From the NCBI GenBank assembly GCA_963714145.1, contig OY970235.1:7962499-8026498 (forward strand): a stretch of 64,000 nucleotides of DNA, given 5' to 3'. Source of the DNA: an uncultured Actinomycetota bacterium (GTDB lineage Bacteria; Actinomycetota; Actinomycetes; Mycobacteriales; CADCTP01). Under the pieces are notes generated by a model. The model was not told the DNA's origin and did not search any database. It saw nothing but the letters and a program-made list of their open reading frames with translations. Position numbers and translations under genes: made by a program. This document shows, one piece after another, positions 5,913 through 46,274 of this stretch; the stretch's first letter is position 1; every line of letters starts with the position of its first letter.

Positions 5913-6659
5913 TCAGGTGCGCAGGTAGGAGGCGCCGTTCAGGTCGAGGACGGCGCCGGTGGCGAACTCGGCGGCCGGTGAGGCCAGGTAGAGCACGGCG
6001 GCGGCCACCTCGTCGGCCCGGGCGACCCGGCCGAGCGGGCTCTGCGCCCGGATCCGGTCGCCGTCCGGTCCGTCCAGGAACTCGGCCGCCATCTCGGTCT
6101 CGACGAAGCCGGGCGCGACGGTGGTGATCGTGATCCCGGTACCGCCGAGCGCCTGGGCCAGCGACTGGCCCATCGAGTTGAGCCCGGCTTTGCTGGCACC
6201 GTACGCGGGGTGGTCCGGCTCGCCGCGGAAAGCGCCCCGGGACGACACGTTCACGATCCGCCCGCCGGCCCGCATGTGCCGTACCGCGCACCAGGTTGTG
6301 TTGGCCGCGCCGATCAGGTTCACGTCCAGCACCCGCCGCCACGCCTGCTGCCACTGCTCGTACGTGCTCTCCAGGATGGGGTGCCCGACATACACGCCGG
6401 CGTTGTTGACCAGCACGTCCAGGCCGCCGAGCGCCTCGGCCGCCGCATCTACCATCGCGCGCACCGCCGCCGGGTCGGCCAGGTCGGCCCGCACGGTGAC
6501 GTGCCCGCCACCGGCCAGCGCGGCGACCGTGGCCTGGGCCGCCGCGGGGGACGCCCGGTGGTGCACGGCGACCCGGTCACCCTGGGCCGCGAACGCCACC
6601 GCGACCGCCCGCCCGATCCCGCGCGACGCCCCGGTCACCAGCACCTTCCGCCCGTCCAT
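5913..6659 (-). CDS. SDR-family oxidoreductase (FabG-like)
   Basis: TGASRGIGRA cofactor motif, NNAG, and the catalytic Y-x-x-x-K (YGASKAG). 248 aa, intact. Confidence 0.9.
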   Translation of the reverse strand: MDGRKVLVTGASRGIGRAVAVAFAAQGDRVAVHHRASPAAAQATVAALAGGGHVTVRADLADPAAVRAMVDAAAEALGGLDVLVNNAGVYVGHPILESTYEQWQQAWRRVLDVNLIGAANTTWCAVRHMRAGGRIVNVSSRGAFRGEPDHPAYGASKAGLNSMGQSLAQALGGTGITITTVAPGFVETEMAAEFLDGPDGDRIRAQSPLGRVARADEVAAAVLYLASPAAEFATGAVLDLNGASYLRT

Positions 6660-6692
6660 GCGGCGACCCTACGGAGCCCGGACGGCGCGCTG

Positions 6693-7283
6693 TCAGCGGG
6701 CCCAGCGGGTCAGGAAGTCGCGGACCTGGGCGGCGGTCATGCCGCGGGCGTTGGCGAACGAGCCGTCGTTGGTGGTGACCCTGACCTGGCCGGCCGCGGT
6801 GAGCACGGCCAGCGCGGGAATGCCGCTGCTGTTCAGGTCGACGTACCGGCCAGCTACCTCGAGGTTGTGATCGAACTCGCCGACGTAGATCGCGACCAGG
6901 TGGTAGTGCTGGCGCAGCACGGGCTGGACGGCCGGTGACCGGAACAACTGGTGCAGCACGACGCAGTCCGGGCACCAGTCGGCGCCGAAGTCGAGCAGGA
7001 TCTCGCGGTGGTCGGCGCGGGCCAGGGCGCGTGCCGCGGCGATGTCGGCGGTGGCGTTGCGGGCCGGGTCGTAGCGCTCGGGCAGGGCGGCCGCGGTCGG
7101 GGTCGGGGTCGGCTTCGGGCCGGGCGGTCGGGCCGAGGTCGGCGTGGGGTCGGACGCCGCCGGGCTCGCCGTCGTGGTCGGCGGGCTGCCGGTCCGGGCC
7201 GCGCCGCCGCGGGTGCACCCGACCAGGGTGGTGGTGGCCAACCCGATGACCAGCACGGCACGCAGCCGCGGCGAAACCGACAC
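6693..7283 (-). CDS. Thioredoxin-fold lipoprotein
   Basis: Lipobox LVGC after a hydrophobic N-terminus, a Pro/Thr-rich linker, and a WCPDC redox motif. The start is assigned to GTG 7283 (no in-frame ATG) and is uncertain. Confidence 0.7.
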   Translation of the reverse strand: MSVSPRLRAVLVIGLATTTLVGCTRGGAARTGSPPTTTASPAASDPTPTSARPPGPKPTPTPTAAALPERYDPARNATADIAAARALARADHREILLDFGADWCPDCVVLHQLFRSPAVQPVLRQHYHLVAIYVGEFDHNLEVAGRYVDLNSSGIPALAVLTAAGQVRVTTNDGSFANARGMTAAQVRDFLTRWAR

Positions 7284-7477
7284 AGCGGATCGTAACGGAC
7301 AGTCGCGTTGAGTCGACAATATTTCACCCGGAGTGGCGACGCGCTGCCCGCCTTCGTTGTACGTTCCGACGATTAGGACGAAGACGATGGGACGTACCTC
7401 TTCCCCCGGAGGTGGGGGCAATCAGATCATTGCGGTGCCGGGTGGCCGGCTCGGTGTGGGTGGCAGGCGGGTGAGGC

Positions 7478-8686
7478 ATGACGGTGCTGGTGGACGACCC
7501 GGACCCGGGGTTGGCCGGGCCCCGGGGTGACGGTGTGATCGACGTCGCCGGCCAGCGGCTGACCGTGGCCGAGTTCCTGGCCGAGTGCGCCCGCACCCTC
7601 GGCGATCCGGCCGCCCCGATCGCCGCCCAGCGGGACCGCTTCCTCGCCGCCGGGCTGGCCGCGCTGCGCCGGGCCCCGGACGGTCGCGAGTGGACGGCGG
7701 TCGGGCTGCGCCCGGCGGACGGGCGGTTCGCCGAACTGTGCGCGGAACTCGGCACCGCCGCCCGCGGCCTGCTGGCCGCCGGAGCGACCAACTTCTTCTT
7801 CATGCGCAAGCCGCCTGGGCTGCGGGTGCGGCTCGCCGGCCCGCCGGATCTCGCCGCTGCACTTCGCTCGCATGTGGACAGTTGGCGTTCGGATGGTCTG
7901 CTGGCCGAGGTCGTGCCGAGCGGGTACGAGCCGGAAGAGCACCTGTTCGGCGGACCGGTGTCGATGCGATACGTGCACCGACTGTTCACTGTGGACTCGC
8001 TGGCCTGGCTCGACCACGCCGCGCGCTCCGGCGGCCTGCCGGCCTGGGCATTCTCGCTGCGGCTGATCCGGGCGCTGCTGGACGGGCTGGAGATCGTCGG
8101 TTGGGAGGACCTGGACGTCTGGGACCGGCTGCGCCGCCAGGCTTACCGGACGCTGCCGGCGCCGGTGACGGGCACCGCCGCGTATGCGGCGGCGGCCGAG
8201 GGGGTCCGGGCCGCCTGGGCCGGCGCTGACGATCCGGTCGCGGGCTTTCCGGCCACGGGCTTTCCGGCCGCGGGCTCTGCGGTCGCGGGCTCTGCGGTCG
8301 CGGGCTCTGCGCCCGCGGGCTTTCCGGTCGAGGTGAAAGCGGTTGCAGCGGAGTGGCGGGCCGGCTACTTCGCCACCCCCGAGGCGTACGTCGGGCCGCG
8401 CGAAGCCGCCGCATTCGCGATCGTGTTCCACTGGAACCGCGGCGGCCTCCCACCGCTGCGCCAGGGCCTGCTCGCCGAAGCGCTGGCCGACCGGGCCGCC
8501 CTGTCGGCTCGGGGTGCCGGGTCGGCTGGGGGCGCCGGGTCGGCTCGGGATGCCGAGTTGGCTCGGGGTGCTGGGTCGGCCGGGGGTGCTGAGTCGGCTC
8601 GGGGTGTCGAGTCGGCCAGCGGTGGCTCGACACCCAGGGGTGTCGGGCCGGCCGGGGGCGCCGGGTCGGGTGGGTGGGCCCGGTGA
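7478..8686 (+). CDS. lanB: Split LanB, elimination-domain protein (SpaB_C / thiopeptide-type bacteriocin biosynthesis domain) with repeat-rich C-terminal tail
   Basis: REWTAVGLRP...ATNFFFMRKPPGLRVRLAG...GYEPEEHLFGG...FTVDSLAWL matches the W...FFFiRY..gpHlRlR...Y.pE..RYGG pattern of LanB C-terminal domains. The stop overlaps the next ORF's start. Confidence 0.8.
   Translation: MTVLVDDPDPGLAGPRGDGVIDVAGQRLTVAEFLAECARTLGDPAAPIAAQRDRFLAAGLAALRRAPDGREWTAVGLRPADGRFAELCAELGTAARGLLAAGATNFFFMRKPPGLRVRLAGPPDLAAALRSHVDSWRSDGLLAEVVPSGYEPEEHLFGGPVSMRYVHRLFTVDSLAWLDHAARSGGLPAWAFSLRLIRALLDGLEIVGWEDLDVWDRLRRQAYRTLPAPVTGTAAYAAAAEGVRAAWAGADDPVAGFPATGFPAAGSAVAGSAVAGSAPAGFPVEVKAVAAEWRAGYFATPEAYVGPREAAAFAIVFHWNRGGLPPLRQGLLAEALADRAALSARGAGSAGGAGSARDAELARGAGSAGGAESARGVESASGGSTPRGVGPAGGAGSGGWAR
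8237..8326 (+). repeat. Six in-frame 15-bp tandem units (GFPAT/GFPAA/GSAVA...)
   Basis: gtcgcgggctttccg / gccacgggctttccg / gccgcgggctctgcg / gtcgcgggctctgcg x2 / cccgcgggctttccg, read directly. Confidence 0.9.
8504..8670 (+). repeat. In-frame 18-bp tandem units (SARGAG/SAGGAG...), degenerating toward the 3' end
   Basis: tcggctcggggtgccggg / tcggctgggggcgccggg / tcggctcgggatgccgag / ttggctcggggtgctggg / tcggccgggggtgctgag / tcggctcggggtgtcgag ... Confidence 0.85.
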
Positions 8687-11600
8687 CCGAGGTGGCGCTG
8701 CTCCGGGTCTGCGGCCTGCCCGGGTCCGGATGGACAGTCGCGGCGGCGCCTGACCTGTTCGAGTTGGCCGGGGCGCTGGACGCCGGCGCCGAACGGCTGC
8801 GGGCCGACGCGACGGCGCTGGCGGCCCGGATCGGCGCCGAGCTGGTGCCCGGGCCGGAACTATCCACTGTGGATCGTGGGCGGGCACTCGCGGTCCGGCG
8901 GGCACTGCATACGACCGGCGATGCCCCCGCCGCCGACCTGGCCGCGGTCGCCGACCTTGCCGACTCGGTCCGACCCGGTCCGGTCGGGGCCGGGCAATCC
9001 GGCTGGGTCGGGGCCGGGCAGTCCGGCTGGGGCGGGCCTGGGCAGTCCGGCCCGGTCGGAGCCGGGCGATCTGGCCGGGTCGGGCCTGGGGAGTCCGGCC
9101 GGTCCGGTCCGGTCGGGGCTGAGCTGATCGGTCCGGTCGGGCCCGGGGCGGCCGAGCCGGGCCGGGCCGAGCCGCCCGGGCCGGTCGGGGTGGGGTTGGC
9201 CGGGTCTGAGCCGGTCGGCCTGGTTGCGGCCGGGTTGGCCGGGGCAGCGGGCGGTGAGGGCCCACTGGGTCAGGCGTTGCGCGGGCTGGCTGAGCGGCAG
9301 CACGCGCTCGCCGCGGCGGTGGAGCGGTTCGACGCCGCGGTCGAGGCGGCCCAGACCGGGTGGCTCGGCGCCGCCTGGCAGGTGGTCGGCGAGTCGGCGA
9401 CGGCTCGGCGGGCGGTCCGGGCGGCGAATCCGCTGGCGCTGGCCGATATCGCCGCGCGGCTGGCTGCGGGTGAGCCGTGGACCGGGAAGCGGTTGCGGCA
9501 GCGGGCCGACTACCTGTGGCGGCTGGCGACCCGGGGCAGTACCCGGGCCACCCCACGCGGCTGGCTCGGCCACCTGGCGCTGCTCCCGATCGACCCGGCC
9601 ATCCCGGCCGGGCCGCTGCCGCCGCTGCTGCCGGAGTACGCGATCGAGCAGGCCGGGAACCTGCACGTAGCGGCGCTGGCCGGCCTGGCCGCGGACTCGG
9701 TGTTGACGGTCGCGCCGCTGCACCGGTCCGGCGCCGGTCAGAGCCGGTTCTGGGTGGTCCGGCCGGAGGAACCGTCCCGGCTGATCGAGCTGACCGTCCG
9801 GACCACGCCGGTGCTGGCGGCGATCGTCCGCGCGCTGCGCGAGCGGCCGTTGACCACCAACCAGCTCTGGTCCGAAGTGGACGGGCCGGCGCTGCCGCGC
9901 CGGGAGGTGTTCGACGGGTTCGTCCGGCACCTTGTCGGGCTGGGCGTGCTGGCCGCTGCCGCCCGACCCGGCTGGACGGTGCACGGCTGGCGCCCCTGGC
10001 CGGCCGACCCGCTGGCTGAGCCGGCGACCGGGCCGCTGGCTGAGTCGTCGGCCGACTCGCCGGCTGGGCCGTTGGCTGAGCCGTTGGCCAACCCGTCGGC
10101 CCGGTCGTTGGCTGAGTTGCCGGCCGGGCCGTTGGCCGACCCGTCCGTCGGGCCGTTGGCTGAGCCACTGACGAACCCGCCGGCCGAGCCGTCGGCCGAC
10201 CCGCCGGCTGGGCCGTTGGCTGACCGGTCGGTCGGGCCGCTGGCTGAGCTGGCGGTCGAGCCGCCGGCCGGGTCGTTGGCCGACCCGTCGGCCGGGCTGG
10301 CGGTCGAGCCGGGTGGCTACGTCGATGTCTACCGGCGGGCGGCCGGCGGGCTGTCCCGGGCCACGTGCGCCGAGCTGGCGGAGCTGGTCGGCCTGGCGCT
10401 ACGGGTGCTGGCCGTGCTGGACAGCGAGCAGCCGCGACCCGCCGCGGGTCCTGACCTTCCGGACCCCGGCCCCGCGGAGCCGCGCCCGCTGCTGGAGCTG
10501 GTGGCCGCGGATGTCGCCGCCGAGCACGCCAGCGACCGTCCACTCCGGACCGAAGTGGACCCGGGGCATCACCATGACTGGCCGCCGGTCGAGGACCCGG
10601 AGTCGCCACCCGGCCGGCTGCTCGGCTGGCTGGCCGACCGGCTGGATGCCGGGCCGGTCGACGTCGACGCCAGCGTGCTCGACCGGAGCGCCCAGCTGGA
10701 CTGGCCGGCCGACTGCCTGATCCGTCCATTGTGGCCGGGCGCGGCCGGGCTGCGCGAGGTGCCGGACCGGCCGGGCGCGGCCGGGCCGCGGGCGGTGCTG
10801 GACCGGATCGAGCCGACCGGGCTGCTGGACGCCCGGTTCGGGCACGGGCTGGCGGCGCTGTTCGATGCCGGTGCCGCCCGGGCCGGCTGGTACCGGGAAT
10901 TCCTGCGTGCGGTGGAGGAGGCAGCTCGCGGTCGGTTCGTCGAGCTGCTCGCGCCGGCGCTGTCGGACCGGGCCGCGAACGCGGTGCGCCGGCCGCTGCA
11001 CACCAGCTACTGGACCGGTGACCCGGATCTGCTCCGCTACTGCCCGACTCCGCCCGGGCCGGCGCCGCGATTCATCCCGCTTGCCGATATCACCGTCCGG
11101 CAGGTGGCCGGCGCGCCGGTGGTGGTGGCCGGCAGCGAGCCGATCTGGCCCGTCTACCACGCCACCCGCCAGCTACCGCCGCCCTGGGACGCGTTGGCCC
11201 GGAGGCTGCTCGGCGCCGGGCCGGCACCACCTCGGTCCCGCTGGCGCTCGCTGCGGTACTCGCTGCCGGCGTGGCCGGGGCGTGACTTCGTCCCGCGGAT
11301 CACTGTCGGCGCCGGCGCGCTGGTGCTGACGTGTGCGCAGTGGCGGGTCCGGCCGGGCGATCTCTGGCCGGCCACGGCCCCGCTGGCCGCGAAGGTGCGG
11401 GCGCTCGACCGGCTGCGCCGCCGGCTCGAACTACCGCGGTGGATCACCGCCGCGACCTCGGTGCACGACGAGCCGACCGCCTGCGACCTGCTCAGCCTGC
11501 AGGCGGTCGCGGTGCTCGACCGGCTGCTGCGGCACCGGGTGGAAGCGCTTTACCTTGCCGAGATGCTGCCGTCCCCGCCGCAGTTCCCGGTGTCCGACCA

Positions 11601-11733
11601 GGCCGCCGGATCGGGCCGCAGCCAGGCCGAACTGCTGTTCCGGCTGCCGCTCGGTGCCTCGCCCACCGCGATGGCCGCCCGCGCGGCCGCCGCCTATCAG
11701 AGCCGGGCCGCGCCGCTCGTGCCGGCCCGCTGA
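8674..11733 (+). CDS. lanB: Split LanB, glutamylation-domain lanthipeptide dehydratase (Lant_dehydr_N-like) with two low-complexity insertions
   Basis: N-terminus VALLRVCGLP...RALAVRRALH and C-terminal ...LPRWITAATSVHDEPTACDLLSLQAVAVLDRLL are typical of the LanB N-domain, and no SpaB_C-like end is present. GTG 8674 or GTG 8683 (GTGA overlap with the upstream stop) could be the start. Confidence 0.8.
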   Translation: MGPVTEVALLRVCGLPGSGWTVAAAPDLFELAGALDAGAERLRADATALAARIGAELVPGPELSTVDRGRALAVRRALHTTGDAPAADLAAVADLADSVRPGPVGAGQSGWVGAGQSGWGGPGQSGPVGAGRSGRVGPGESGRSGPVGAELIGPVGPGAAEPGRAEPPGPVGVGLAGSEPVGLVAAGLAGAAGGEGPLGQALRGLAERQHALAAAVERFDAAVEAAQTGWLGAAWQVVGESATARRAVRAANPLALADIAARLAAGEPWTGKRLRQRADYLWRLATRGSTRATPRGWLGHLALLPIDPAIPAGPLPPLLPEYAIEQAGNLHVAALAGLAADSVLTVAPLHRSGAGQSRFWVVRPEEPSRLIELTVRTTPVLAAIVRALRERPLTTNQLWSEVDGPALPRREVFDGFVRHLVGLGVLAAAARPGWTVHGWRPWPADPLAEPATGPLAESSADSPAGPLAEPLANPSARSLAELPAGPLADPSVGPLAEPLTNPPAEPSADPPAGPLADRSVGPLAELAVEPPAGSLADPSAGLAVEPGGYVDVYRRAAGGLSRATCAELAELVGLALRVLAVLDSEQPRPAAGPDLPDPGPAEPRPLLELVAADVAAEHASDRPLRTEVDPGHHHDWPPVEDPESPPGRLLGWLADRLDAGPVDVDASVLDRSAQLDWPADCLIRPLWPGAAGLREVPDRPGAAGPRAVLDRIEPTGLLDARFGHGLAALFDAGAARAGWYREFLRAVEEAARGRFVELLAPALSDRAANAVRRPLHTSYWTGDPDLLRYCPTPPGPAPRFIPLADITVRQVAGAPVVVAGSEPIWPVYHATRQLPPPWDALARRLLGAGPAPPRSRWRSLRYSLPAWPGRDFVPRITVGAGALVLTCAQWRVRPGDLWPATAPLAAKVRALDRLRRRLELPRWITAATSVHDEPTACDLLSLQAVAVLDRLLRHRVEALYLAEMLPSPPQFPVSDQAAGSGRSQAELLFRLPLGASPTAMAARAAAAYQSRAAPLVPAR
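8983..9105 (+). repeat. Five in-frame 24-bp tandem units (VGAGQSGW-type)
   Basis: gtcggggccgggcaatccggctgg repeated with small changes; it encodes VGAGQSGW VGAGQSGW GGPGQSGP VGAGRSGR VGPGESGR. Confidence 0.9.
10008..10305 (+). repeat. About 300-bp in-frame low-complexity array (PLAE/PxAGPLA-type units)
   Basis: Encodes PLAEPATGPLAESSADSPAGPLAEPLANPSARSLAELPAGPLADPSVGPLAEPLTNPPAEPSADPPAGPLADRSVGPLAELAVEPPAGSLADPSAG. Confidence 0.85.
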
Positions 11734-11762
11734 TCCACCGGCGAAGGGAGGAGCACCCACCT

Positions 11763-11777
11763 CGTCCACTGTGGACG
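11763..11777. promoter_or_regulatory. Perfect 15-bp interrupted palindrome CGTCCAC-T-GTGGACG in the lanB-lanA intergenic region (candidate operator)
   Basis: Read directly. It lies 60 nt upstream of the precursor ATG and is a member of the over-represented CCACWGTGG family (see findings). Confidence 0.4.
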
Positions 11778-11836
11778 GAGTTGGCACCGAACCGGGCCGC
11801 TCGAACGGGCGGCCCAGTCACTCGAGGAGGAGCACC

Positions 11837-12001
11837 ATGCCGCCGACCACCGACCTGACCCCCAGCGTCCCGGTCGACTCCATCGAAGCACTGATCGCCG
11901 AGCTGGAGGCGCAGACCGAGCGCGAGGTCCCGCTCAGCGACATCACGGACCCCTGGCCGTCCGAGATCTGCACCGGCCGCTTCACCTGCGTCCCGCGCTA
12001 A
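11837..12001 (+). CDS. lanA: Lanthipeptide-type precursor peptide (54 aa)
   Basis: GAGGAGGAG RBS 4-5 nt before the ATG. Sequence MPPTTDLTPSVPVDSIEALIAELEAQTEREVPLSDITDPWPSEICTGRFTCVPR. It has an acidic helical leader and a Ser/Thr/Cys-containing C-terminus, and it sits between the dehydratase and the cyclase. Confidence 0.7.
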   Translation: MPPTTDLTPSVPVDSIEALIAELEAQTEREVPLSDITDPWPSEICTGRFTCVPR

Positions 12002-12086
12002 CCGGACCGACCCGCCGGCGCGTCGGCTGGGCCCACACCCAGCCGGCGCGCCGGCTCCACCAGGGAGCACTCATGCCGGTCCCGAG

Positions 12087-13352
12087 GTGCCGAACGGTTG
12101 CCGCCGGCCCGACCCGTACCGCCGCGGCCGGCCGGAAGCGCCGACCGTGATCCGCGCCGGCGCGACCGACGGGGGTATATCGACCGGCGGCAGTACCGGG
12201 CACGGCTCCGGTGCCAACGGCGGTGGCCGGCAGTTGGGCCTGCCGGATGCCGATCTGGCCGGCGTCGTGGCGGAGGTCGCCATCGGTCCGGGGCTGCGGC
12301 AGACCGGCGACGCGGGAGTCGGCGTGCTGCTCGGGTTGGTCAGGACGGAACTGCCGGTGCGGCAGGCGTTGCTGGCCGAGTGGCTCGGTGGGCTGCGCGC
12401 CGGGGCCGCCGGCGGTGGGCTGTTCGGCGGTGGGTCGGCCGGGCACGCCGTCGGGCTGGCGTACGCGGCCGAGGCCGAGCCGAGGCTGGCCGGGTTGGCC
12501 ACCCGCCGGCGGGCGGCGTTGGCCGGCTGGGCCGGCGCGAGCCCGTGGCGCGGCGATGCGGTCGGCTGGGCCGACTATGACCTGATGACCGGGCCGGCGG
12601 GGGTGCTGCTCGCGCTGGCCAGCCTGCCGGCGCCCGCGCCGGCCGAGATCCGCCCGCTGGCCGAGCACCTCGCCGGCCTGACCGGCGACCTGGACCGGTT
12701 GCGGGTGCGGCGGCATGCCGGTGACGGTCAGGCCGCCCAACTCGGCCACCTCGACCACGGCCTGGCCCACGGCCTCGCCGGCGTCGTGGCCGCAATGACC
12801 GCTGCCGCCCGGCTGTTCGGACCCGAACCGCCCGGGTTGCGCCGGGCCGCGCACCGGCTCCGTGCGACGTCCTATGTGGACAGTACCGGCGTAGCGAGCT
12901 GGCCGCCGAGCAGCGCCGGGGCCGACCCGTCCCGTCCGGTCCACCGGCAGGCCTGGTGCTACGGCGCGCCGGGCGTTGCCTGGGCGCTCTGGGATGCCGG
13001 CCAGCTGTTGGGCGATGCCGAGCTGACCGGCCTCGCGGCCGCGGCGATGGCCAGCCTCTGCGCGGCCTGGGACGACGACCGCTACCTCTACGGCGAGCTG
13101 GGCGACCGGCTCGGCGTCTGTCACGGCGCGGCCGGTGTTCTCGCCGTCGCCGACGCGTTCGCCCGGCACGCCGGGCACCAGCCAGCGGCCGGGCTGCGTA
13201 CCCACCTGCGCGGCCGGATTGACCCGGACCGCATCGCCGAGCTCGGCCGTACCGACCTGACCATGCTCAACGGCGCGGCCGGCGTGCTGACTGTGCTGAC
13301 CACTGTGGACGGTGGCCGGCGCGACTGGCTGCCGGTGCTGGGGCTGCGATGA
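12087..13352 (+). CDS. lanC: LanC-type lanthipeptide cyclase
   Basis: GLAHGLAG, WCYGAPGVAWAL and CHGAAGVL motifs (Zn ligands Cys/Cys/His). The true start is uncertain (GTG 12087 or a later GTG). The stop overlaps the next ATG (ATGA). Confidence 0.9.
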   Translation: MPNGCRRPDPYRRGRPEAPTVIRAGATDGGISTGGSTGHGSGANGGGRQLGLPDADLAGVVAEVAIGPGLRQTGDAGVGVLLGLVRTELPVRQALLAEWLGGLRAGAAGGGLFGGGSAGHAVGLAYAAEAEPRLAGLATRRRAALAGWAGASPWRGDAVGWADYDLMTGPAGVLLALASLPAPAPAEIRPLAEHLAGLTGDLDRLRVRRHAGDGQAAQLGHLDHGLAHGLAGVVAAMTAAARLFGPEPPGLRRAAHRLRATSYVDSTGVASWPPSSAGADPSRPVHRQAWCYGAPGVAWALWDAGQLLGDAELTGLAAAAMASLCAAWDDDRYLYGELGDRLGVCHGAAGVLAVADAFARHAGHQPAAGLRTHLRGRIDPDRIAELGRTDLTMLNGAAGVLTVLTTVDGGRRDWLPVLGLR

Positions 13353-15112
13353 CCGCGGTACTGCGGATGCTGCTCGCCGTCTCCCGCCGGAAAGTGGCGG
13401 CACTCGCGGTGGTCGTGCTGGTGCAGGCGCTCGCCCCGGTCGCGGCGGTGGTCGCGGTCGGGCACCTGCTCGGTGCGGTGGTCGCGCTGCGCACCGATCC
13501 GGGCGCGCCCGGCCGGGCCTGGCTCGCGTTCGCGCTGCTGGCTGCCGCCTGGCTGGCCGATCAGCTGGCCCAGTTCGCCGGCGCGGCGCTCACCGCCCGG
13601 CTGAGCCGGCTGGTGGCCGAGCACATCACCGGCGCGGTGCTGGCGGCCAGCCTCCACCCGGTCGGCATCGGTCACCTGGAGGATCCGGCGCGGGCCGATC
13701 AGTTCAGCCTGGCCCAGGGGCTCGGCGCCGGCAGCTTCCCGCCGGCCGCCGCGGTAGCCGCGCTGACCCAGGTGGCGGTGATCCGGCTGCAGGCGCTGGC
13801 CACGGCGGTGACGCTGGCCAGCGTGCTCTGGTGGGCGCCGCTGCCGCTGATTCTCGGCTGGGTACTGCTCGGCCGGCGCGTCGCCGGGCAACTCCGCGAG
13901 CAGGTGCGGGCGGTACAGGCGGAGACCGCGGCGCTGCGCCAGGCGACCTACTTCCGCACGCTCGGCCTGGACCTCGGCGCCGCCAAGGAGGTCCGGGTCT
14001 TCGGCCTCGGCGGCTGGCTGGCCGACCGGTTCACCGCCTGCTGGCAGGCCGGCATGGGTGAACTGCTCCGCCGCCGGGACAGCCGGCTGCCGCTGGCCTG
14101 GCGGACCGCGCTGCTGGTCGGCAGCTACGCGGCGGTGCTGACCGTCCTGGTGGACGCCACGCTGGCCGGTCGGGTGTCGATCACCGGGTTGACCATCGCG
14201 ATCCCGGCCGCGATCGCGATGTCCGGCTTCGGGTGGAGCGGGGATCCACAGTGGACGCTCGCCGGCGCGGCGCCGGCCATCCAGCAGGCGCTGGCACTGT
14301 CCGAGCCGGCGCCGCCGCGCGCCGGTCGTGACCCGGACGGGCCGCGGGTCGGCATCCGGTTCGAGGACGTCAGCTTCGGCTACCCCGGCCGCCCGGACCG
14401 ACCGGCGGACCGGCTGAACCTGTGCATCCCGGCCGGCCAGTCGCTGGCCATCGTCGGCGCGAACGGAGCCGGCAAGACCACCCTCATCAAGCTGCTGGCC
14501 CGGCTGTACGAGCCGGCCGCGGGCCGGATCACGGTCGACGACGTCGATCTGCGCGAGCTGGACGCGGCCGGCTGGCGCCGCCAGCTCGCCATCGTCTTCC
14601 AGGACTTCCTCCGGCTGGAGCTGACCGCCCGCGACAACGTCGCATGTGGACGGTCCGGTACTCCGGTGGACGAGGCGGCGCTCGCCGCCGCCGCATCCGC
14701 GGCCGGTGCCGCGGACCTGATCGCGACGCTGCCGCAGGGCTGGGACACCGTGCTGTCCCGCCGGTTCGGCGACACCGAGCTGTCCGGCGGCCAGTGGCAG
14801 AAGCTGGCGCTGGCCCGGGCGCTCTACGCGGTGCGGCTCGGCGCCCGGGTGCTTGTCCTGGACGAGCCGACCGCGCAGCTGGACGCGGCGGCCGAGGCCG
14901 AGCTCTACGCGCGGTACCTGGAGCTCACCCGCGGGCTGACCACCGTGCTGGTCTCGCACCGGTTCAACACGGTCCGGCTGGCCGACCGGATCGTGGTGCT
15001 CGCCGGCGGCCGCATCGTCGAGGACGGCAGCCACGACGAGCTGATCCGAGCCGGTGACTGGTACGCCCGGATGTTCCGGCTGCAGGCCGACCGGCTCGCG
15101 GCGTCCACATGA
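13349..15112 (+). CDS. ABC exporter, fused permease/ATPase
   Basis: Six-TM-like N-terminal half. Walker A GANGAGKTT, signature LSGGQWQ, Walker B LVLDEPTA. ATGA coupling at both ends. Confidence 0.9.
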   Translation: MTAVLRMLLAVSRRKVAALAVVVLVQALAPVAAVVAVGHLLGAVVALRTDPGAPGRAWLAFALLAAAWLADQLAQFAGAALTARLSRLVAEHITGAVLAASLHPVGIGHLEDPARADQFSLAQGLGAGSFPPAAAVAALTQVAVIRLQALATAVTLASVLWWAPLPLILGWVLLGRRVAGQLREQVRAVQAETAALRQATYFRTLGLDLGAAKEVRVFGLGGWLADRFTACWQAGMGELLRRRDSRLPLAWRTALLVGSYAAVLTVLVDATLAGRVSITGLTIAIPAAIAMSGFGWSGDPQWTLAGAAPAIQQALALSEPAPPRAGRDPDGPRVGIRFEDVSFGYPGRPDRPADRLNLCIPAGQSLAIVGANGAGKTTLIKLLARLYEPAAGRITVDDVDLRELDAAGWRRQLAIVFQDFLRLELTARDNVACGRSGTPVDEAALAAAASAAGAADLIATLPQGWDTVLSRRFGDTELSGGQWQKLALARALYAVRLGARVLVLDEPTAQLDAAAEAELYARYLELTRGLTTVLVSHRFNTVRLADRIVVLAGGRIVEDGSHDELIRAGDWYARMFRLQADRLAAST

Positions 15113-16923
15113 GACTCGAATGGCTGCGGTTGTGGTCCGCGCTGCTGCGGCTGGCGCTGCGGGCCGATCGGCGGCGCGCGGTCACCGTGCTGCTGCTGGC
15201 CCCGCTGGCCGGCGCGGCGATCGGCGCTCCGGCGCTGGCTCTGAAATGGACAGTCGACGCGGTGGTCCGCGGCGATCGGGGGCAGGCGTTCGCGGCGGCG
15301 GCGGCGTTGGCCGGCGCCGTCGTCGCCGTCTCGCTGCTGGGCACCGCGGCCACCAGTGTCCGGCTGGCCCTGCAGCAGCAGGCCGGGCAGGCGCTGGACC
15401 GGCACCTGATCGAACTGTGCACCGGCATCCCCGGCCTGGACCGGCACGAGGATCCGGCCTTCCAGGACCGGCTGGAGATCCTGCACCGCAACCGGGACGT
15501 GCTCGCGTCCGCGATCAGCAGCCTGCTGGAGAACCTCCGCACCGGCGCCCGGCTGGTGTCGATGGTCGTCCTGCTCGCCGGTATCGACCTGCGACTGCTG
15601 CTGCTCCCGCTGTTCGCGCTGCCCACGGTGCTGGCGGCCGGCGCCGGGCAGCGGCTGCAGCGCCGCTGCGACGAGGAGATCGCCGCGCCGAGCCGGCTGC
15701 GTGGCTGGCTGTTCACCCTCGGCAGCACCGCCGGCCCGGCCAAGGAACTGCGCGTCTACAACCTGGCGGACGAGCTGACCCGCCGGCACGATCGCCTGCA
15801 GCAGGCGGTGAACGACCGCGACCAGTCCACCGCGATACGCGTCGCCGCGCTGGAGTTCGCCGGCTGGACGGTCTTCTGCGCCGGCATTCTCGGCGCGGTG
15901 GCGCTGGTACTGCACCGGGCCGTCCACGGCACGGCCACGGCCGGCGACGTCGTGCTGCTGGTCACGCTGGCTACCCAGGTGGACAGCACGGTCGCCACCG
16001 CCGCCCGCGCTGTCCAGTGGCTGCGCCGCGCCAGTTGGGCCGGCAGCCACTACCGCTGGTTGATCGGCGAGGCCGGCCCGTCCGGGTCGGTCGCCGGGCC
16101 GGCCCCGGAACCGGGCGAACTGGTCTTCGACCGGGTCACGTTCGGCTACCCGGGCCGGGAGCAGCCGGTGCTGCGGGAGGTGTCGCTGCGCATCCCGGCC
16201 GGCGCCACCGTAGCGCTGGTCGGTGCGAACGGCGCCGGCAAGTCCACAGTGGTCAAACTGCTCTGCCGGCTGTACGAGCCGACCAGCGGCCACATCCGCC
16301 TCGGCGGCCGGGACATCCGCGACTTTCCGCTGGACGCCTGGCGAGCCCGGATCACCGCCGCCTTCCAGGACTTCTACCGGTACGAGCTGCCGCTACGGGA
16401 CGGCGTCGGCATCGGCGACCTGTCCACTATGGACGATGCGGGCGCGGTCACCCGGGCGATCGCCCGGGCCGGCGCGACCGCGCTCGTGGACAGCCTGCCA
16501 GCCGGCGCGGCCACCCAGCTCGGCCGCAGCTACGCCGACGGCCAGGACCTCTCCGCCGGCCAGTGGCAACAGCTCGCCGTCGCCCGCGCGATGATGCGCG
16601 AACACCCGCTGCTCACCATCCTGGACGAACCCACCGCCAGCCTCGACCCGGCCGCCGAGCAGGCCCTGTTCGAGCGCTACGCCGCCGCGGCCGCCGACCC
16701 CACCAGCATCACCATCCTGGTCTCGCACCGCTTCTCCACCGTCCGCACCGCCGACCTGATCGTCGTCCTCGACTCCGGCCAGGTCCGCCAGTTCGGCACC
16801 CACCAACAACTCCTCGCCGAACCAGGCCCCTACGCCACCCTGGTAGCCCTGCACACCCGCGGCTTCGCCACTCCTGAAGCCACCGAGCCAGCCGCTGAGC
16901 CAACACCGCCGGTCCACCAGTAG
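15109..16923 (+). CDS. ABC exporter, fused permease/ATPase (probable heterodimer partner)
   Basis: Walker A GANGAGKST, signature LSAGQWQ, Walker B TILDEPTA. Confidence 0.9.
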   Translation: MRLEWLRLWSALLRLALRADRRRAVTVLLLAPLAGAAIGAPALALKWTVDAVVRGDRGQAFAAAAALAGAVVAVSLLGTAATSVRLALQQQAGQALDRHLIELCTGIPGLDRHEDPAFQDRLEILHRNRDVLASAISSLLENLRTGARLVSMVVLLAGIDLRLLLLPLFALPTVLAAGAGQRLQRRCDEEIAAPSRLRGWLFTLGSTAGPAKELRVYNLADELTRRHDRLQQAVNDRDQSTAIRVAALEFAGWTVFCAGILGAVALVLHRAVHGTATAGDVVLLVTLATQVDSTVATAARAVQWLRRASWAGSHYRWLIGEAGPSGSVAGPAPEPGELVFDRVTFGYPGREQPVLREVSLRIPAGATVALVGANGAGKSTVVKLLCRLYEPTSGHIRLGGRDIRDFPLDAWRARITAAFQDFYRYELPLRDGVGIGDLSTMDDAGAVTRAIARAGATALVDSLPAGAATQLGRSYADGQDLSAGQWQQLAVARAMMREHPLLTILDEPTASLDPAAEQALFERYAAAAADPTSITILVSHRFSTVRTADLIVVLDSGQVRQFGTHQQLLAEPGPYATLVALHTRGFATPEATEPAAEPTPPVHQ

Positions 16924-21910: not shown

Positions 21911-24514
21911 TCAGCCGGCGCCGAAGCAGACGAAGGCGGCGGCCGGGGCGGTCTGGGTGGCGGCGGCGAGCGCGCGGGCCGGCGGCAGGCCGGTGGCGAG
22001 GTGCCGGTGGTAGGAGGTCATCACCTGGATCGCGACGTCGTCCGGGACGCGGACCACGCTGGCGACGACGTTGCGGGTTCCGGCCAGCAGCAGCGCGGTG
22101 GTGAAGCCGAGGATCTCCTCGCCCGGGTGGACCGCGGCGCGGCCGACGTCGCAGGCGGACAGCACGACCTGCCGCGGCGGCCTGGCCAGCCCGTAGACGT
22201 CGTAGGCCATCAGCGGTCCGTCGGCGAGGTCGAGCCGGGAGAACAGGACGTTGTCGCGCTGGTGGTGGCCGTGGGTGGCGAGGTGGGCCAGCGGTGCGGT
22301 GCGGAGCGCCGCCAGCACATCGGCCACGGTGGCGTCGGCGGGCCGGAACGTCCGGCTGCCCGGGTGGATCGCGGCGATCGCCTCGATCTCCGCCTCGGCG
22401 TGCCGCAGGTCCGGCCCGGCCACCAGCACCGGCGGGCCGTCCGGCGCGCCGTCCCCATCGGCACCGTCCCCATCGGCACCGCCCCGGTCAGCGCGGGCGG
22501 CGGCGTACCAGGCGGACGCGGACGGGGCGACGGTCACCGGCCGGCCGCGCAGGTCGGGCAGTAGCCCCCATGGCACCGCGGACAGTGCCGCGCCGGGTAC
22601 CAGCACCAGCTCGGCGGTGCCGATCAGCGGGCGCAGCGGCGCGACCAGTTCGGCGGTGAGGACGTCCACGTGGTGCCGGATCGAGGCCCGGACGACGGCG
22701 GCCAGCGGCGCGGGGTGGTCGCGGCCGGCGAGGACGTCGAGGTCGGCGAGCAGCCGCCGCTGCGCCTCCCGCGCGACGGCCGCGTCGCCGAGCGGTACCG
22801 GGTGCGCCCGGCCGTCCCGGACAACCAGCCCGCGCAGTTGACCCTGGCGCTCGAACATCGTCACCAGGACCCGCCGGTCGCGGGCCAGTTCCGCGGTCAG
22901 CTCGGTGAGCGTGGGCAGCGCGCTGCTGTGTCCGGTGCCGGGCACCCGGCGGTCCCGGTCGAGGATGGCCCGTTCCAGTGCCGCGCACCGGGCCAGGGCC
23001 CGCTGGTCGCGCCGGCCAGCCAGCTCCGCCTCCCGGGCCAGCCGGCGGAGGCCGCGCAGCTCGGCGATGTCGTCCGCGGTCTGCGGGTCCGCCGACGGGC
23101 GCACCGGTGTGGTCCGGAACGCCTGCGCCCGGGACCGCTCGGACCAGGTGAAGACCAGCCGGGTGGTGCCGGCCGCGTCCAGCCCGGTCCGGGCCAGCTC
23201 GACGCCGAGCGCCGCGACGCCGACCTGCAGTTCCAGGCTGCCCAGCCGGCTGCGCCGACCGTGCAGCAGCGCGAGGCCGGCCCGGAGCTGGCTGAGCGCA
23301 CCCGAGGTGTCGCCACGGGCCAGCGCGAGCTCGGCCCGGGTCATCCGCCAGAGCAGCCGCAGATCCAGCGGGGCACCGGCGCCCAACCGGCTCACCTCGG
23401 CGGCTACCTCGCCGGCCGGCCCGATCCGGCCCAGCCGGATCAGCCCACGGACGGCCAGCAGCGTGGCCGCGGCGGCGTCGTGCCCCAGCCCGTGCTGCCG
23501 CAGCGACGCGGCCAGCGCGAGTGCGCGGGTCGGCAGCCGGCGGATGTTGCCCAGCGCGAGTTCGACCCGCAACCGGAGCAGGCCGGCGAGCTGCGCCCAG
23601 GACTCGTTGCCCCGGGCCCGGAATCTGGTCTCGGCCCGCCGCGACCAGGCCAGCGCGCCGACCAGATCGCCGGTCGTGAGCGCGGCCTGGGCCCGGGCCA
23701 GCGCGGCCTCCGCGTAGTCCTGGGTGAGTCGCTGCGCGCGGAACTGGTCGAGCGCCTCGTCCAGGTCCCTGGCCGCGTCGTGGCCGAGGCCGGCGGCGAG
23801 CAGCGCCTTGGCCCGGTTGACCGCCAGGATCGGCAGGAAGCCCGGGCTCAGCTGCGCGTAGCCGCGCCCGGCTGCCGCGAACGCGGCCAGCGCCGCCGGG
23901 ATGTCACCGGTGAGCAGGTCGCACAGCCCGCCGTTGTGCCCGGCCTTGACCGCGATCAGGGGCAGGTCGTGCCGCCGGGCCAGCCGGGCGCACCGGCGCA
24001 GGTCGTCGCGGGCCGGCGTGACCCGGCCGCTGTCGATGTGCACGAGCGCCCGGTTCAGCAGCGTGGGCACCAGCACCGCCATCTCGCCGGACCGCTCCAG
24101 CAGCGGGATCGCGGCATCCAGCAGCGGCAGCGCGTTCTCGACCCGGCCCAGCCGCAGCAGCATCAGCCCGGCCTGCTGCAGCAGCACCCCGTGCTCGCCG
24201 GCCGGAAGCAGCGTGGCGGCCTCGTCCAGGAGCGTGAAGCCGAGGTCGGTGCGGCCCTGCTCGGCCTCGGCCAGGGCCAGGCTGATCAGGATCCGGCCAT
24301 GTAACCGGGAGCTCTCGGCCCCGACCACGGCGGCGTTCTCGAGCACCCGCAGCGCCCGCCGCAGCTGCCGGGCGCCGAGCACGGGACGTCCGCCAGAGGT
24401 CGCGCCGACCCCCTGGCGGTGCAGTTGCCGGGCGAGGTCCAGCGCGTGCTCCGCCCGGACAGGTGGCCGCCGCTCGGCGGCGCGCCGTACACCGGCCTCG
24501 GGCGCAGCGGTCAC
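21911..24514 (-). CDS. TPR-repeat CHAT-domain protease
   Basis: The start is GTG 24514, overlapping the upstream stop (GTGA). A long TPR-like helical repeat region is followed by a C-terminal CHAT core with HLATHGHH (His) and VVLSACDVG (Cys). The 1034-aa track ORF includes an unsupported N-terminal extension. Confidence 0.85.
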   Translation of the reverse strand: MTAAPEAGVRRAAERRPPVRAEHALDLARQLHRQGVGATSGGRPVLGARQLRRALRVLENAAVVGAESSRLHGRILISLALAEAEQGRTDLGFTLLDEAATLLPAGEHGVLLQQAGLMLLRLGRVENALPLLDAAIPLLERSGEMAVLVPTLLNRALVHIDSGRVTPARDDLRRCARLARRHDLPLIAVKAGHNGGLCDLLTGDIPAALAAFAAAGRGYAQLSPGFLPILAVNRAKALLAAGLGHDAARDLDEALDQFRAQRLTQDYAEAALARAQAALTTGDLVGALAWSRRAETRFRARGNESWAQLAGLLRLRVELALGNIRRLPTRALALAASLRQHGLGHDAAAATLLAVRGLIRLGRIGPAGEVAAEVSRLGAGAPLDLRLLWRMTRAELALARGDTSGALSQLRAGLALLHGRRSRLGSLELQVGVAALGVELARTGLDAAGTTRLVFTWSERSRAQAFRTTPVRPSADPQTADDIAELRGLRRLAREAELAGRRDQRALARCAALERAILDRDRRVPGTGHSSALPTLTELTAELARDRRVLVTMFERQGQLRGLVVRDGRAHPVPLGDAAVAREAQRRLLADLDVLAGRDHPAPLAAVVRASIRHHVDVLTAELVAPLRPLIGTAELVLVPGAALSAVPWGLLPDLRGRPVTVAPSASAWYAAARADRGGADGDGADGDGAPDGPPVLVAGPDLRHAEAEIEAIAAIHPGSRTFRPADATVADVLAALRTAPLAHLATHGHHQRDNVLFSRLDLADGPLMAYDVYGLARPPRQVVLSACDVGRAAVHPGEEILGFTTALLLAGTRNVVASVVRVPDDVAIQVMTSYHRHLATGLPPARALAAATQTAPAAAFVCFGAG

Positions 24515-24993
24515 AACACCACGGCGGGGGTGACGATCGGGCCGCCCGCACCGACCGGGCGGACGACGAACTGGACGATGCCGGCCGGGATGTCGGTGAA
24601 CACGAACCGACCCTGCTCGTCGGCGACCGTCCGGGTCGGTCCGCCGGTGGTCCGGACCTGCACGCTGTGGGTGCCGGGCGGGGTGAGCCAGCCGTCGATG
24701 GTGAAAGTGGAATCCGGCTGCCGGGCGACGCTGACCAGAACTGTCAGGTGGTCGTTGTGGAACGTGATGGTGCGGCTGCCGTCGTCCGCCCCGCGGGTGG
24801 CGACGAGGTCCTCGGCCCGGTCCGGCCGGAAGCTGTCCGCGTCCATGTTCTCCAGGCTCAGCGCGAACCCGATGCAGGTGAGCAGGTCGGCCGGCACCGG
24901 GTCGACGGCCGAATAGAGGGTCCGGACCCCGTCCAGGATGGCCAGGTCGGTCTCGTCGATGGGGTCGGACGGTTGCGGGTCGGCCGGCGTCAC
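24511..24993 (-). CDS. 160-aa protein coupled between the ECF sigma and CHAT genes; C-terminal carboxypeptidase-regulatory-like beta-sandwich; candidate anti-sigma/substrate
   Basis: GTG start in a GTGA overlap with the sigma stop, and its own stop overlaps the CHAT start. The ...VADEQGRFVFTDIPAGIVQFVVRP motif is present. No TM segment and no HxxxCxxC. Confidence 0.7.
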   Translation of the reverse strand: MTPADPQPSDPIDETDLAILDGVRTLYSAVDPVPADLLTCIGFALSLENMDADSFRPDRAEDLVATRGADDGSRTITFHNDHLTVLVSVARQPDSTFTIDGWLTPPGTHSVQVRTTGGPTRTVADEQGRFVFTDIPAGIVQFVVRPVGAGGPIVTPAVVL

Positions 24994-25544
24994 GGCCTGC
25001 TCCAGCCCGGGTCACCGGCCAGCAGCCGGCGCAGCTCGGCGAGGCACCGCCCCCGGGTCGGGCCGATGCTGCCGCGGGGCATCCCCAGCGCCTCGCTGAT
25101 CGCGTTGTAGTCGGGCCGGTGCGCGAAGGCGATCACCCGGATCAGTTCCTGGCAGCGGGCGGAGAGCTGACGGACCGCCGCCCAGAGCACCCGCCCCCGC
25201 TCCTCGTCCAGCACGATGTCCTCGGGCAGCGGCTCCGTGCTCGGCTGCTCGGCCAGCAGTGACAGCACGTCGGGCACCTCGGCCCGCCGCCGCATCCGGG
25301 TTCGCATATGCCAGGCCTCCCTTTTCGTGACGGTGATCAGCCAGCCGATGACCGCCTCCGGAGTCTGGATGGTGTCCAGACTCCGGAGGAACGCCATCCA
25401 GGTCAGCTGGACGGCATCAGCCGCGCTGTCCTGATCCAGGCCCTGGCTGCGCGCAACCTGCCAGAGCAGAGGCGTGGCGTCAGCCACCAGCTTGTCGAGG
25501 GCGTCCCGCTCCCCGGACCGGATGGCGTCGAGCACGTTGCCCAC
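24990..25544 (-). CDS. ECF-type sigma-70 family RNA polymerase sigma factor
   Basis: Region 2 (LTWMAFLRSL...WLITVTKREAWHMR) and region 4 HTH (YNAISEALGMPRGSIGPTRGRCLAELR). GGAGAA RBS. Confidence 0.9.
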   Translation of the reverse strand: MGNVLDAIRSGERDALDKLVADATPLLWQVARSQGLDQDSAADAVQLTWMAFLRSLDTIQTPEAVIGWLITVTKREAWHMRTRMRRRAEVPDVLSLLAEQPSTEPLPEDIVLDEERGRVLWAAVRQLSARCQELIRVIAFAHRPDYNAISEALGMPRGSIGPTRGRCLAELRRLLAGDPGWSRP

Positions 25545-25602
25545 GAGCGTTCTCCGTCGTGCTCGGCAAACCAGCTGTCTCGCCCGCCATGAATCGTCCC
25601 GG

Positions 25603-27213: not shown

Positions 27214-27333
27214 GGGCGGTCGCGGTGGCCGACCGGCAGAAGATAGGTGGGCCCGACCCCGGCCCTGGATACCGGTGCGGGCGGCTGCGCGCCGGCGCCC
27301 CCGTCGGCGCCGGCGCGGGTTGGTCCCGGCCGG

Positions 27334-42487: not shown

Positions 42488-42677
42488 GGGCCACCCCCTG
42501 AGAATCGGACAACAGTAGGGCATCCAGCACGGACCAGGTGTGTTCGGGAGCTCGGGCCGGCTCCGCTGCACGACCAGGGGGTGGCCGGTGCCCGCGCGGC
42601 TGGTCAGCTGGCGGCGGCGGCGGCGGACCGGCGGCACCGGCGCGGCCGGCGGCCGGGAGCGGGCTAGGGTCGGCGGC

Positions 42678-43772: not shown

Positions 43773-43858
43773 TCCAACCCCGCAATCCCCGCAGAACGCG
43801 CCAACCCGGCCCGGTGCCAGCTACCCTGCGTGCGGGCACCCGCCCACCACACCCTCAC

Positions 43859-43931
43859 GGGGCGTTAGCTCAACTGGCAGAGCAGCGGACTTTTAATCCG
43901 CGGGTTCTGGGTTCGACCCCCAGGCGCCCCA
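43859..43931 (+). tRNA. tRNA-Lys(TTT): tRNA-Lys (anticodon UUU)
   Basis: Manual cloverleaf: acceptor GGGGCGT/GCGCCCC, D arm GCTC/GAGC, anticodon stem GCGGA/TCCGC with loop CTTTTAA, 5-nt variable region, T arm CTGGG-TTCGACC-CCCAG, discriminator A. CCA is not encoded. Confidence 0.95.
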
Positions 43932-44040
43932 CGAGCCGGGCCACGACCGTGCCGGCGATCAGCAGCGCCGGCACCGCCAGCCCGGGAACTCGGCATCCTC
44001 CGGGGCGTCCAGGCTTTTTGACACGGCCAGCGTCCGGCCC

Positions 44041-44964: not shown

Positions 44965-45095
44965 CGGCCGTCCTCCCCAGGCGTCGAGGCCACCCACGAT
45001 CGCGGTGATCGAGGTGAGCTGTCCTCGCCGGAAGGTGGTGATTCCCTGCCTGGCGTGGGCCGGCGACGAGCGCAGGGCCGGGATCGTCATGCCCG

Positions 45096-45323
45096 TCATG
45101 TCCGCGGTGGTCTGGGCCTGACCTGGCGCAGTTCGAGAAGCTCGAGGCCGAGGGCCTCGATCTGGGCGAGGACACCGAACATCGCGGATTGATCTTCAAG
45201 CACGCCGGTGAGCACCGTCTCACTGCCGTCCAGTTCGGCCACCATCCTGGGGAAGGCGGACAGGGCAGTCGCTCCGAGCCGACCCTTTATCCGGATCACG
45301 TACAAGCTCGGCGGCGCGGCCAC
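45096..45323 (-). CDS. Small hypothetical protein (75 aa)
   Basis: YVIRIKGRLGATALSAFP...LTGVLEDQSAMFGVLAQIEALGLELLELRQV. A recurring actinobacterial small-protein pattern as far as I recall, with no assigned function. Confidence 0.5.
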   Translation of the reverse strand: MAAPPSLYVIRIKGRLGATALSAFPRMVAELDGSETVLTGVLEDQSAMFGVLAQIEALGLELLELRQVRPRPPRT

Positions 45324-45394
45324 ATGGTGATCGTGCTGGGCGACCTAGTGAATCGGCGACGCCGGAATCCAGCGATTGAGCCCGCGGACCGTGG

Positions 45395-45748: not shown

Positions 45749-45802
45749 AGGGCGGCTGCTAGGTCCGATCCAGCCATCGACGTGGTCGTCGTCGGCGGTG
45801 GG

Positions 45803-46114: not shown

Positions 46115-46274
46115 CGCGACCAGGTTCGCATGGGTCCGGGTCGATCCGGTACCGCGGTCGGTTGACGTGCTGACGAGGGCCCACCGATTGTCGTACTGGC
46201 AATGAAAACGGGTTCGGCTACTATCTGCGGGGTGCGGGCCGGGTCTGCTGGTCGAGTGTCGGGTTGGGGGAGTC

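Follow-up and report, generated by a model that had tools for sequence, protein, structure and literature searches.

A block of six genes in the DNA of an uncultured Actinomycetota bacterium (contig OY970235.1, positions 7,962,499 to 8,026,498 of the forward strand) raises the question of whether it specifies a new class of lanthipeptide pathway or a known pathway with a new product. The block occupies positions 7478–16923 of the 64-kb stretch that was analysed, referred to here as the window, which has a G+C content of about 74% as in actinomycete-type DNA. The six genes lie in a row and are transcribed rightwards (plus strand, as are all cluster features given below), in the order ELIM, GLUT, the precursor gene, LanC, ABC1 and ABC2. 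The original prediction described a class I lanthipeptide operon with its LanB dehydratase split into two proteins in inverted order, and took this arrangement, together with an unfamiliar core peptide, to indicate an undescribed family. Judging from the sequences, we consider it probable that the six genes form a functional class I cluster for a lanthipeptide, that the cluster is of the SapT (spt) type, and that LanB is divided between ELIM and GLUT. The enzymology and the gene layout of such clusters have already been described (Sarksian et al. 2022; PMC9011353) and the locus opens no new class; what is new is the peptide, whose core family appears to be undescribed.

The operon and the two halves of its dehydratase

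Independent assemblies show synteny over the entire block, so its genes are real beyond chance, and the G+C content at third codon positions (GC3) of the six genes is of the coding type (0.86–0.91). The elimination protein, glutamylation protein, 54-residue precursor, LanC cyclase and two half-type exporters that had been predicted are all confirmed, and the domain assignments of ELIM, GLUT and LanC agree with a class I operon with a split LanB. The six genes had also been described as chained by overlaps throughout. This holds for three of the five junctions, each a four-nucleotide overlap (GTGA at 8683–8686, ATGA at 13349–13352 and ATGA at 15109–15112), but not for the two around the precursor gene, which is flanked by gaps of 103 nt upstream and of 85–145 nt downstream, depending on the LanC start. 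As predicted, Pfam detects neither a tailoring enzyme nor a protease (including LanP) nor a regulator among the operon genes. By tblastn, ELIM, GLUT and LanC each occur only once in the window, and a consensus promoter/terminator scan of the sequence gave no match.

ELIM (7478–8686, 402 residues) is the elimination half, a putative stand-alone glutamyl lyase of the SptBb type matching Pfam Lant_dehydr_C (PF14028; 1.5e-14) and TIGR03891 (2e-22). Direct phmmer searches of ELIM and GLUT against PDB sequences returned low-complexity noise only, and family profiles were used in place of single-sequence phmmer for the structure-sequence matches of both proteins. All 37 family-invariant residues are kept in ELIM in an alignment of 31 family sequences (A1), and K111, R116, R118, E153 and L156, which lie in the motifs FFFMRK111PPGLR116VR118 and YEPE153EHL156FGG, are invariant. 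In the A1 profile an 'hK' pair is aligned with 'RY', and 'ExxL' with 'ExxR', of MibB and MadB; K111 is aligned with the Tyr of the 'RY' motif, which is the position of the NisB Tyr, and L156 with the Arg of MibB 'YDPEYERYGG', which is the position of NisB Arg826. The glutamate-binding Arg pair (NisB R784/R786) and Glu823 are retained as R116, R118 and E153. In lyases of the SptBb type a Lys replaces the NisB Tyr (SptBb K92, CoiSA K46), a hydrophobic residue replaces Arg826 and the glutamate-binding Arg pair is kept; these enzymes carry out a net syn-elimination, demonstrated for SptBb itself, that gives (E)-dehydrobutyrine (Dhb) and from it D-allo-L-methyllanthionine (MeLan). ELIM, as aligned, carries this syn-glutamyl-lyase signature, and it is the only lyase of its cluster. 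An AlphaFold2 (AF2) model of ELIM has a predicted local distance difference test score (pLDDT) of 86, and Foldseek places it closest to the MibB, MadB and NisB elimination domains (Foldseek probability 1.00), with pyridine synthases next. The C-terminal third of ELIM gives no profile alignment with NisB, MibB or MadB, as has been reported for SptBb.

GLUT (8683–11733, 1016 residues including three repeat inserts) is the glutamylation half, a putative stand-alone Glu-tRNA-dependent glutamyl transferase of the SptBa/TbtB type. Its probable start is at 8683, within the GTGA overlap with the ELIM stop, rather than at 8674, and it matches Pfam Lant_dehydr_N (PF04738; 1e-9). When full-length GLUT was used in a word-indexed search for homologues, its repeats dominated the result (11 proteins), and GLUT genes were instead taken from the related loci described below. 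The resulting family profile has 827–829 positions and GLUT minus its inserts covers about 828 of these, in line with the some 830 residues of glutamylation domain that had been estimated after discounting repeats; all 34 family-invariant residues are present. The family profile (A3, 38 sequences) matches TbtB (6ec7, 861 residues) at 2e-16, with aligned segments at TbtB 17–372 and 732–847, and a goadsporin protein (9jhq) at 2e-13. Because GLUT is collinear with TbtB at both ends and Pfam detects no PF14028 signal in it, we regard it as a glutamylation-only protein; a check of this long LanB protein for a cryptic elimination domain found none.

ELIM and GLUT belong to a widespread pair. Proteins of the ELIM family are stand-alone, 300–370 residues in length and found in actinomycetes at 40–50% identity, and a scan of one genome per species gave 224 related loci, of which 80 were retrieved and examined. 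GLUT lies directly downstream of ELIM in 63 of these 80, mostly with the same four-nucleotide overlap, and 52 have LanC as well; 13 of the 52 add the same pair of ABC half-transporters. The inverted order that had been offered as a mark of novelty is thus the exact layout of the spt/SapT cluster and recurs in those 52 loci, and the present locus documents the wide spread of the lyase-first split-LanB operon in actinomycetes. One to six small open reading frames (ORFs) stand between GLUT and LanC in the related loci, with a common leader box and very diverse cores, including SapT-like cores such as ...CSGLCTIIVCATVVICG in L048, L056, L077 and others. We note that in three Nonomuraea loci (L061:13015-13239, L070:13027-13218 and L073:13077-13283) the first precursor is in frame with the GLUT C-terminus with no stop between them, an arrangement that could be either an enzyme-substrate fusion or an internal start.

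The precursor peptide and its predicted maturation

The precursor gene (11837–12001) is preceded by a ribosome-binding site, GAGGAGGAG, at 11824–11832, and encodes a 54-residue peptide with no family match, with a leader box, VDSIEALIAELE, and a core of about (D)PWPSEICTGRFTCVPR. An identical precursor is present in several soil assemblies, one of them a metagenome-assembled genome (MAG) that carries a Mycobacteriales annotation, and synteny there extends over the whole block. Two further variants came from a word-indexed search of 5.8 billion proteins and three more from phmmer run exhaustively against 1.84 billion representatives; only six precursor variants were found in the protein collections searched, all from soil metagenomes and Mycobacteriales MAGs. 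The six share a C-terminal 15-mer, W-P-S-E-[IV]-C-T-[GF]-R-[FP]-T-C-[VI]-[PL]-R, in which S42, C45, T46, T50 and C51 are invariant, so that three invariant Ser/Thr residues are set against two Cys. Ahead of the 15-mer, 10–15 residues are free to vary, and conservation returns in the leader box. This pattern of an invariant core behind a free linker indicates that the core begins at or just before the Trp and that the peptide is under purifying selection; a comparison with locus L084 shows a synonymous change in a Ser codon inside the core.

Two features of the precursor had been put forward as unusual. The first, the unfamiliarity of the core, is borne out by the occurrence of only the six variants in about 1.8 billion representative proteins and by the open-access papers, in which the core sequence was not found; a literature search with the core string gave degenerate PCR primers only. 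The second was a leader without an FNLD-like box. Such a box is indeed absent, but this is no sign of novelty, since the precursor has instead a box that is conserved in its family and in SptA homologues. Written as [DE]x[LIM][IV]xxL[ED], the box has a single regular-expression match in the 64-kb window, at the precursor. It is found in about 80 precursors between GLUT and LanC of related loci and in the SptA homologues of the spt paper (Table S8), e.g. MPAHEITELDTLISDLEERITDEELPSADG.

Just past the precursor stop is a perfect 18-bp GC-rich hairpin (12014–12055) within the gap that separates the precursor gene from LanC. The 96-nt stretch that contains it (11995–12090) has a predicted folding energy of -63.7 kcal/mol (z -6.2), and none of 200 shuffled sequences was as stable. 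The hairpin is kept in L084 with one compensatory change from C-G to A-T, and the 3' part of the ribosome-binding site (GAGGAG) is unchanged at the start of the L084 contig. No U-tract follows the hairpin. It is likely to act as an attenuator or as a stabiliser and in this way to set how abundant the precursor transcript is relative to the enzyme transcripts.

Cores resembling that of the window occur in a few other places. A cluster at L085:476-6603 (also in L086) has the same WPSEICTGRPTCVPR core (precursor P0138) together with an insert-free GLUT of 860 residues. Locus L005, the closest relative of cultured-genome type that has the ABC pair, carries three precursors (L005:13664-14397), one of which ends in GCTGRTTCQVP and resembles ICTGRFTCVPR of the window, and Nonomuraea precursors with FWSVEIC...TC also echo the core.

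To the right of the hairpin is the LanC gene (12087–13352), which encodes a cyclase of 421 residues if read from the GTG at 12087, or of 401 residues from 12147 as called in related assemblies. It matches Pfam LANC_like (PF05147; 8e-19), and its GLAHG, WCYG and CHG motifs align to NisC His212, Cys284 and Cys330/His331. The zinc ligands (Cys, Cys and His), which the original prediction had claimed from their motifs, are present, and so is the catalytic His. The last two genes encode ATP-binding cassette (ABC) half-transporters, ABC1 (13349–15112, 587 residues, with transmembrane and nucleotide-binding domains) and its paralogue ABC2 (15109–16923, 604 residues). They match PF00005 (4e-29 and 9e-26, respectively), are MsbA-like over residues 150–579 and 128–582, have their ABC domain at about residues 355–510, and share 37% identity, and are probable heterodimer partners. 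Neither has a match to a C39 peptidase domain, in agreement with the earlier statement that the exporters lack a peptidase.

By analogy with SptBa, SptBb and SptC, a pathway can be proposed in which the precursor would be recognised via its acidic amphipathic leader box. GLUT would transfer glutamate from Glu-tRNA(Glu) onto Ser and Thr residues of the core, and ELIM would remove it by net syn-elimination to give dehydroalanine (Dha) and (E)-Dhb. The zinc-dependent LanC would then add Cys45 and Cys51 to the dehydrated residues. Because rings usually form in the N-to-C direction and SapT has contiguous SxxC-TxxxC rings, the simplest topology would be a lanthionine (Lan) ring between Ser42 and Cys45 followed directly by a MeLan ring between Thr46 and Cys51, the MeLan probably having the D-allo-L configuration. 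Thr50 would either stay Thr or become a free Dhb; since the core has more Ser/Thr than Cys residues, the product might carry a free (E)-Dhb at this position, a residue so far seen only in an engineered intermediate and never in a mature ribosomal natural product. Export would be by an ABC1/ABC2 heterodimer, and leader removal would fall to a protease whose gene lies outside the cluster, with cleavage probably directly ahead of the invariant WPSE; the hairpin would tune the ratio of precursor to enzyme transcript. The predicted product is a bicyclic, charged peptide of about 15–17 residues. A morphogen role is not implied, because the core is nothing like the hydrophobic SapT. More tentatively, the 15-mer may mark out a new structural subfamily among the lanthipeptides of syn-lyase systems, compact, charged and two-ringed with D-allo-L-methyllanthionine; we think this possible rather than likely, and if true a new bioactivity would be expected.

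Competing explanations and the surroundings of the cluster

Five GC-rich tandem-repeat tracts lie within ELIM and GLUT (located with Tandem Repeats Finder), all in frame and with periods of 12–84 nt that are without exception multiples of three. The encoded inserts are rich in Gly, Ala, Ser and Pro, have no counterpart in homologues elsewhere and are predicted to be disordered. In ELIM a 15/30/45-nt repeat (8233–8330) coincides with a low-pLDDT segment (residues 265–277) and has no equivalent in homologues, and an 18-nt repeat (8503–8669) encodes a Gly/Ala/Ser-rich C-terminal tail whose length varies from strain to strain. The three GLUT inserts are at 8975–9243 (insert 1; 24–57-nt repeats, pLDDT below 50, missing from homologues and shorter in P0125), 10001–10312 (insert 2; 12/24/84-nt repeats of the PLAEP type, pLDDT below 50) and 10733–10825 (insert 3; a 36-nt repeat), the last two being delimited also by alignment A2. 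Insert length differs among near-identical strains, ELIM having 402 or 367 residues and GLUT 1016 or 937. Because all family-invariant residues are kept, we read the inserts as tolerated expansions and not as decay; both dehydratase halves are able to carry long, strain-variable low-complexity inserts.

Several observations weigh against a functional cluster of the SapT type. First, the presence of large low-complexity inserts in both dehydratase halves is itself one of them, and the AF2 model of GLUT is poor (pLDDT 52). Secondly, in a related Mycobacteriales MAG (L004:961-2161) ELIM is intact and GLUT residues 1–56 are joined to ABC2 residues 542–584; this is a clean deletion scar, with the precursor, LanC and most of the transporters lost. 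Thirdly, the clusters with the same core in L085 and L086 and on the P0140 contig are without the ABC pair, so the link to export is not universal. Fourthly, H318 of ELIM is invariant in an FHWNR motif near the C-terminus of the family, which bears on whether ELIM lacks a base of the NisB His961 type, a further criterion for a syn-lyase of the SapT type. Finally, the ring topology, leader cleavage site and stereochemistry of the product are predictions from the genes.

The third of these observations lends some weight to the view that the ABC pair is not a dedicated peptide exporter but serves immunity, or consists of general exporters that merely happen to be neighbours. In L085 an APH-family kinase (PF01636) follows LanC in place of the ABC pair, and only one quarter of the complete related loci (13 of 52, as noted above) have the pair. 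On the other hand, the pair is translationally coupled to lanC by the ATGA overlaps in the window, the LanC-ABC-ABC arrangement recurs at 46–55% identity in genera as distant as Streptomyces, Nonomuraea and Planotetraspora and only beside such clusters, and ABC1 and ABC2 have the architecture of a NisT-like exporter and not of a LanFEG-type immunity pump. We therefore consider this view unlikely, and favour ABC1 and ABC2 as the probable exporter of the peptide.

A second possibility is that the cluster is decaying and without a product, with ELIM and GLUT crippled by their repeats and the locus in the process of being lost. The five tracts of strain-variable copy number and the deletion scar in L004 are as expected from such a process. 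Against it, every reading frame is intact and every repeat period is a multiple of three, the inserts are confined to loops or tails that are predicted to be disordered, GC3 stays at the coding level, the family-invariant residues are all retained in both proteins, and conservation among diverged loci extends to the core, its ribosome-binding site and the hairpin. Decay is an improbable account of these data, and we retain the reading of the block as a functional SapT-type cluster.

It is more improbable still that the locus specifies something other than a lanthipeptide, with GLUT a ligase of the PEARL type (small LanB) or a thiopeptide-type protein and ELIM catalysing, for example, a [4+2]-type cyclisation. 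In favour of this reading, the fold of ELIM also matches TsrL and two pyridine synthases, TbtD and PbtD, the solved proteins most closely related to GLUT belong to thiopeptide and goadsporin pathways, and the Pfam scores are weak. Against it, Pfam detects no YcaO cyclodehydratase, azoline dehydrogenase, [4+2] pyridine synthase or second PF14028 protein in the six cluster genes and near flanks, and a second copy of ELIM, GLUT or LanC is missing from the window by tblastn. The operon also includes, by translational linkage, a LanC whose catalytic residues are intact, and its core combines two invariant Cys with invariant Ser/Thr. ELIM has retained both the Arg pair that binds glutamate and the catalytic Lys known from proven syn-glutamyl lyases, and the characterised homologous system makes a lanthipeptide.

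The flanks of the cluster contribute little to the pathway. Upstream and divergent from it (5913–7421, minus strand) are genes for a Thioredoxin_7-type protein and a short-chain dehydrogenase/reductase (SDR). Both are syntenic in the closest relatives (in L004 the SDR only); the thioredoxin-like gene is absent from more distant relatives, where SDR-like genes are sporadic, with weak matches beside ELIM in L033 and L080. We considered both as tailoring genes, and with synteny so limited they probably do not belong to the pathway. Downstream are a convergent membrane protein, a DUF218 protein, a cell-surface Ig-domain protein and a beta-lactamase-family protein, followed by a leftwards-transcribed operon (21911–29085, minus strand) with a CHAT/TPR protein, an ECF sigma factor, an S8 subtilase and a vWA-like protein. 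Of these, the S8 enzyme (25603–27213, minus strand) is the nearest peptidase. It was weighed as a LanP and set aside as an unlikely candidate: it is encoded 8.7 kb downstream of the cluster on the opposite strand, within the CHAT/sigma/vWA operon, inspection by eye showed no clear signal peptide, and it seems to belong to a separate system. The flanking genes do not recur beside related clusters beyond the closest relatives, apart from occasional weak SDR-like matches, and since the operon itself also lacks genes for tailoring, proteolysis and regulation, none can be assigned to the cluster.

Two further loci in the window are of separate interest. A 2827-residue protein encoded at 52829–61312 (plus strand) combines an eCIS_core (DUF4157) domain at its N-terminus with an annexin repeat and, at its C-terminus, an Ntox4 toxin domain, and in this architecture resembles a polymorphic toxin. 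The region 41105–50708 contains a stand-alone condensation-domain protein (41105–42685, minus strand), an AIR-synthase-related protein, a nicotianamine-synthase-like gene (46577–47710) and an amidase-amidohydrolase fusion (47679–50708, minus strand), and may be a small-molecule locus of opine or metallophore-like type.

Comparison with known systems

The spt cluster of Streptomyces lavenduligriseus Tu901, which encodes SapT (PMC9011353, PMC9890492), shares its main features with the window. It has been described as a rare subtype of class I in which LanB is split (SptBa the transferase and SptBb the lyase), with an SptC cyclase and no clustered protease (PMC9011353), and its operon order is lyase, transferase, sptA and sptC (supplement, PMC9011353). 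The spt operon DNA was recovered from the supplement by optical character recognition, which is error-prone, and was used for gene order and the FMHKPxGLRVRF motif only. Both clusters come from actinomycetes, are of class I with a split LanB and the order lyase-transferase-precursor-cyclase, and have in common the Lys-for-Tyr and Leu-for-Arg signature of the lyase and a leader box of the LIxxLE type. Neither has a protease gene. Leader removal, which had seemed unexplained, is in this respect normal, as about one third of lanthipeptide clusters are without a nearby protease. A published similarity network includes a sizeable group of split syn-lyase systems.

There are also clear differences between the two. 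The cores are unrelated, that of the window (WPSEICTGRFTCVPR) being charged with two Cys and that of SapT (YTQGCSGLCTIVICATVVICG-type) hydrophobic with four; the core of the SapT family, xTxGCSGLCTI(V/I)(I/V)CATVVIC, forms four rings and is not matched by the window core. ELIM is only about 42–44% identical to the lyases of SapT-like loci. Unlike spt, the window locus has two ABC exporters and repeat inserts in both dehydratase halves, and has no sptR/sptK or histidine phosphatase gene.

The thiopeptide and goadsporin systems (TbtB/TbtC of thiomuracin; 9jhq) resemble the window in having a stand-alone transferase that is collinear with GLUT and a separate lyase. However, they form azoles by YcaO-type enzymes, use lyases of the anti type and have no LanC, whereas the present cluster has LanC, no azole machinery and a lyase that would be of the syn type. 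The canonical systems with a full-length LanB (NisB/NisC/NisT, MibB and MadB) share with the window the same two-step chemistry, the cyclase fold and motifs, and NisT-like exporters without a protease domain. The NisB, MibB and MadB type differs in that the dehydratase is one polypeptide of about 1000 residues, the leader has an FNLD-type box, the elimination site is of the anti type (Tyr, Arg826 and His961) and a LanP is usually present.

The elimination domain of CoiSA, a syn-glutamyl lyase of the coi cluster of Streptomyces coelicolor, has the same signature of a Lys and a hydrophobic residue as ELIM; however, CoiSA is an extra lyase, fused to a methyltransferase and located beside a full-length LanB, whereas ELIM is on its own. 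Only the spt and coi systems of syn-glutamyl lyases have been studied so far, and the 15-residue substrate of the window, with its two predicted rings, would be a convenient model both for the choice of residues by a syn-lyase and for the survival of (E)-Dhb in a mature product.

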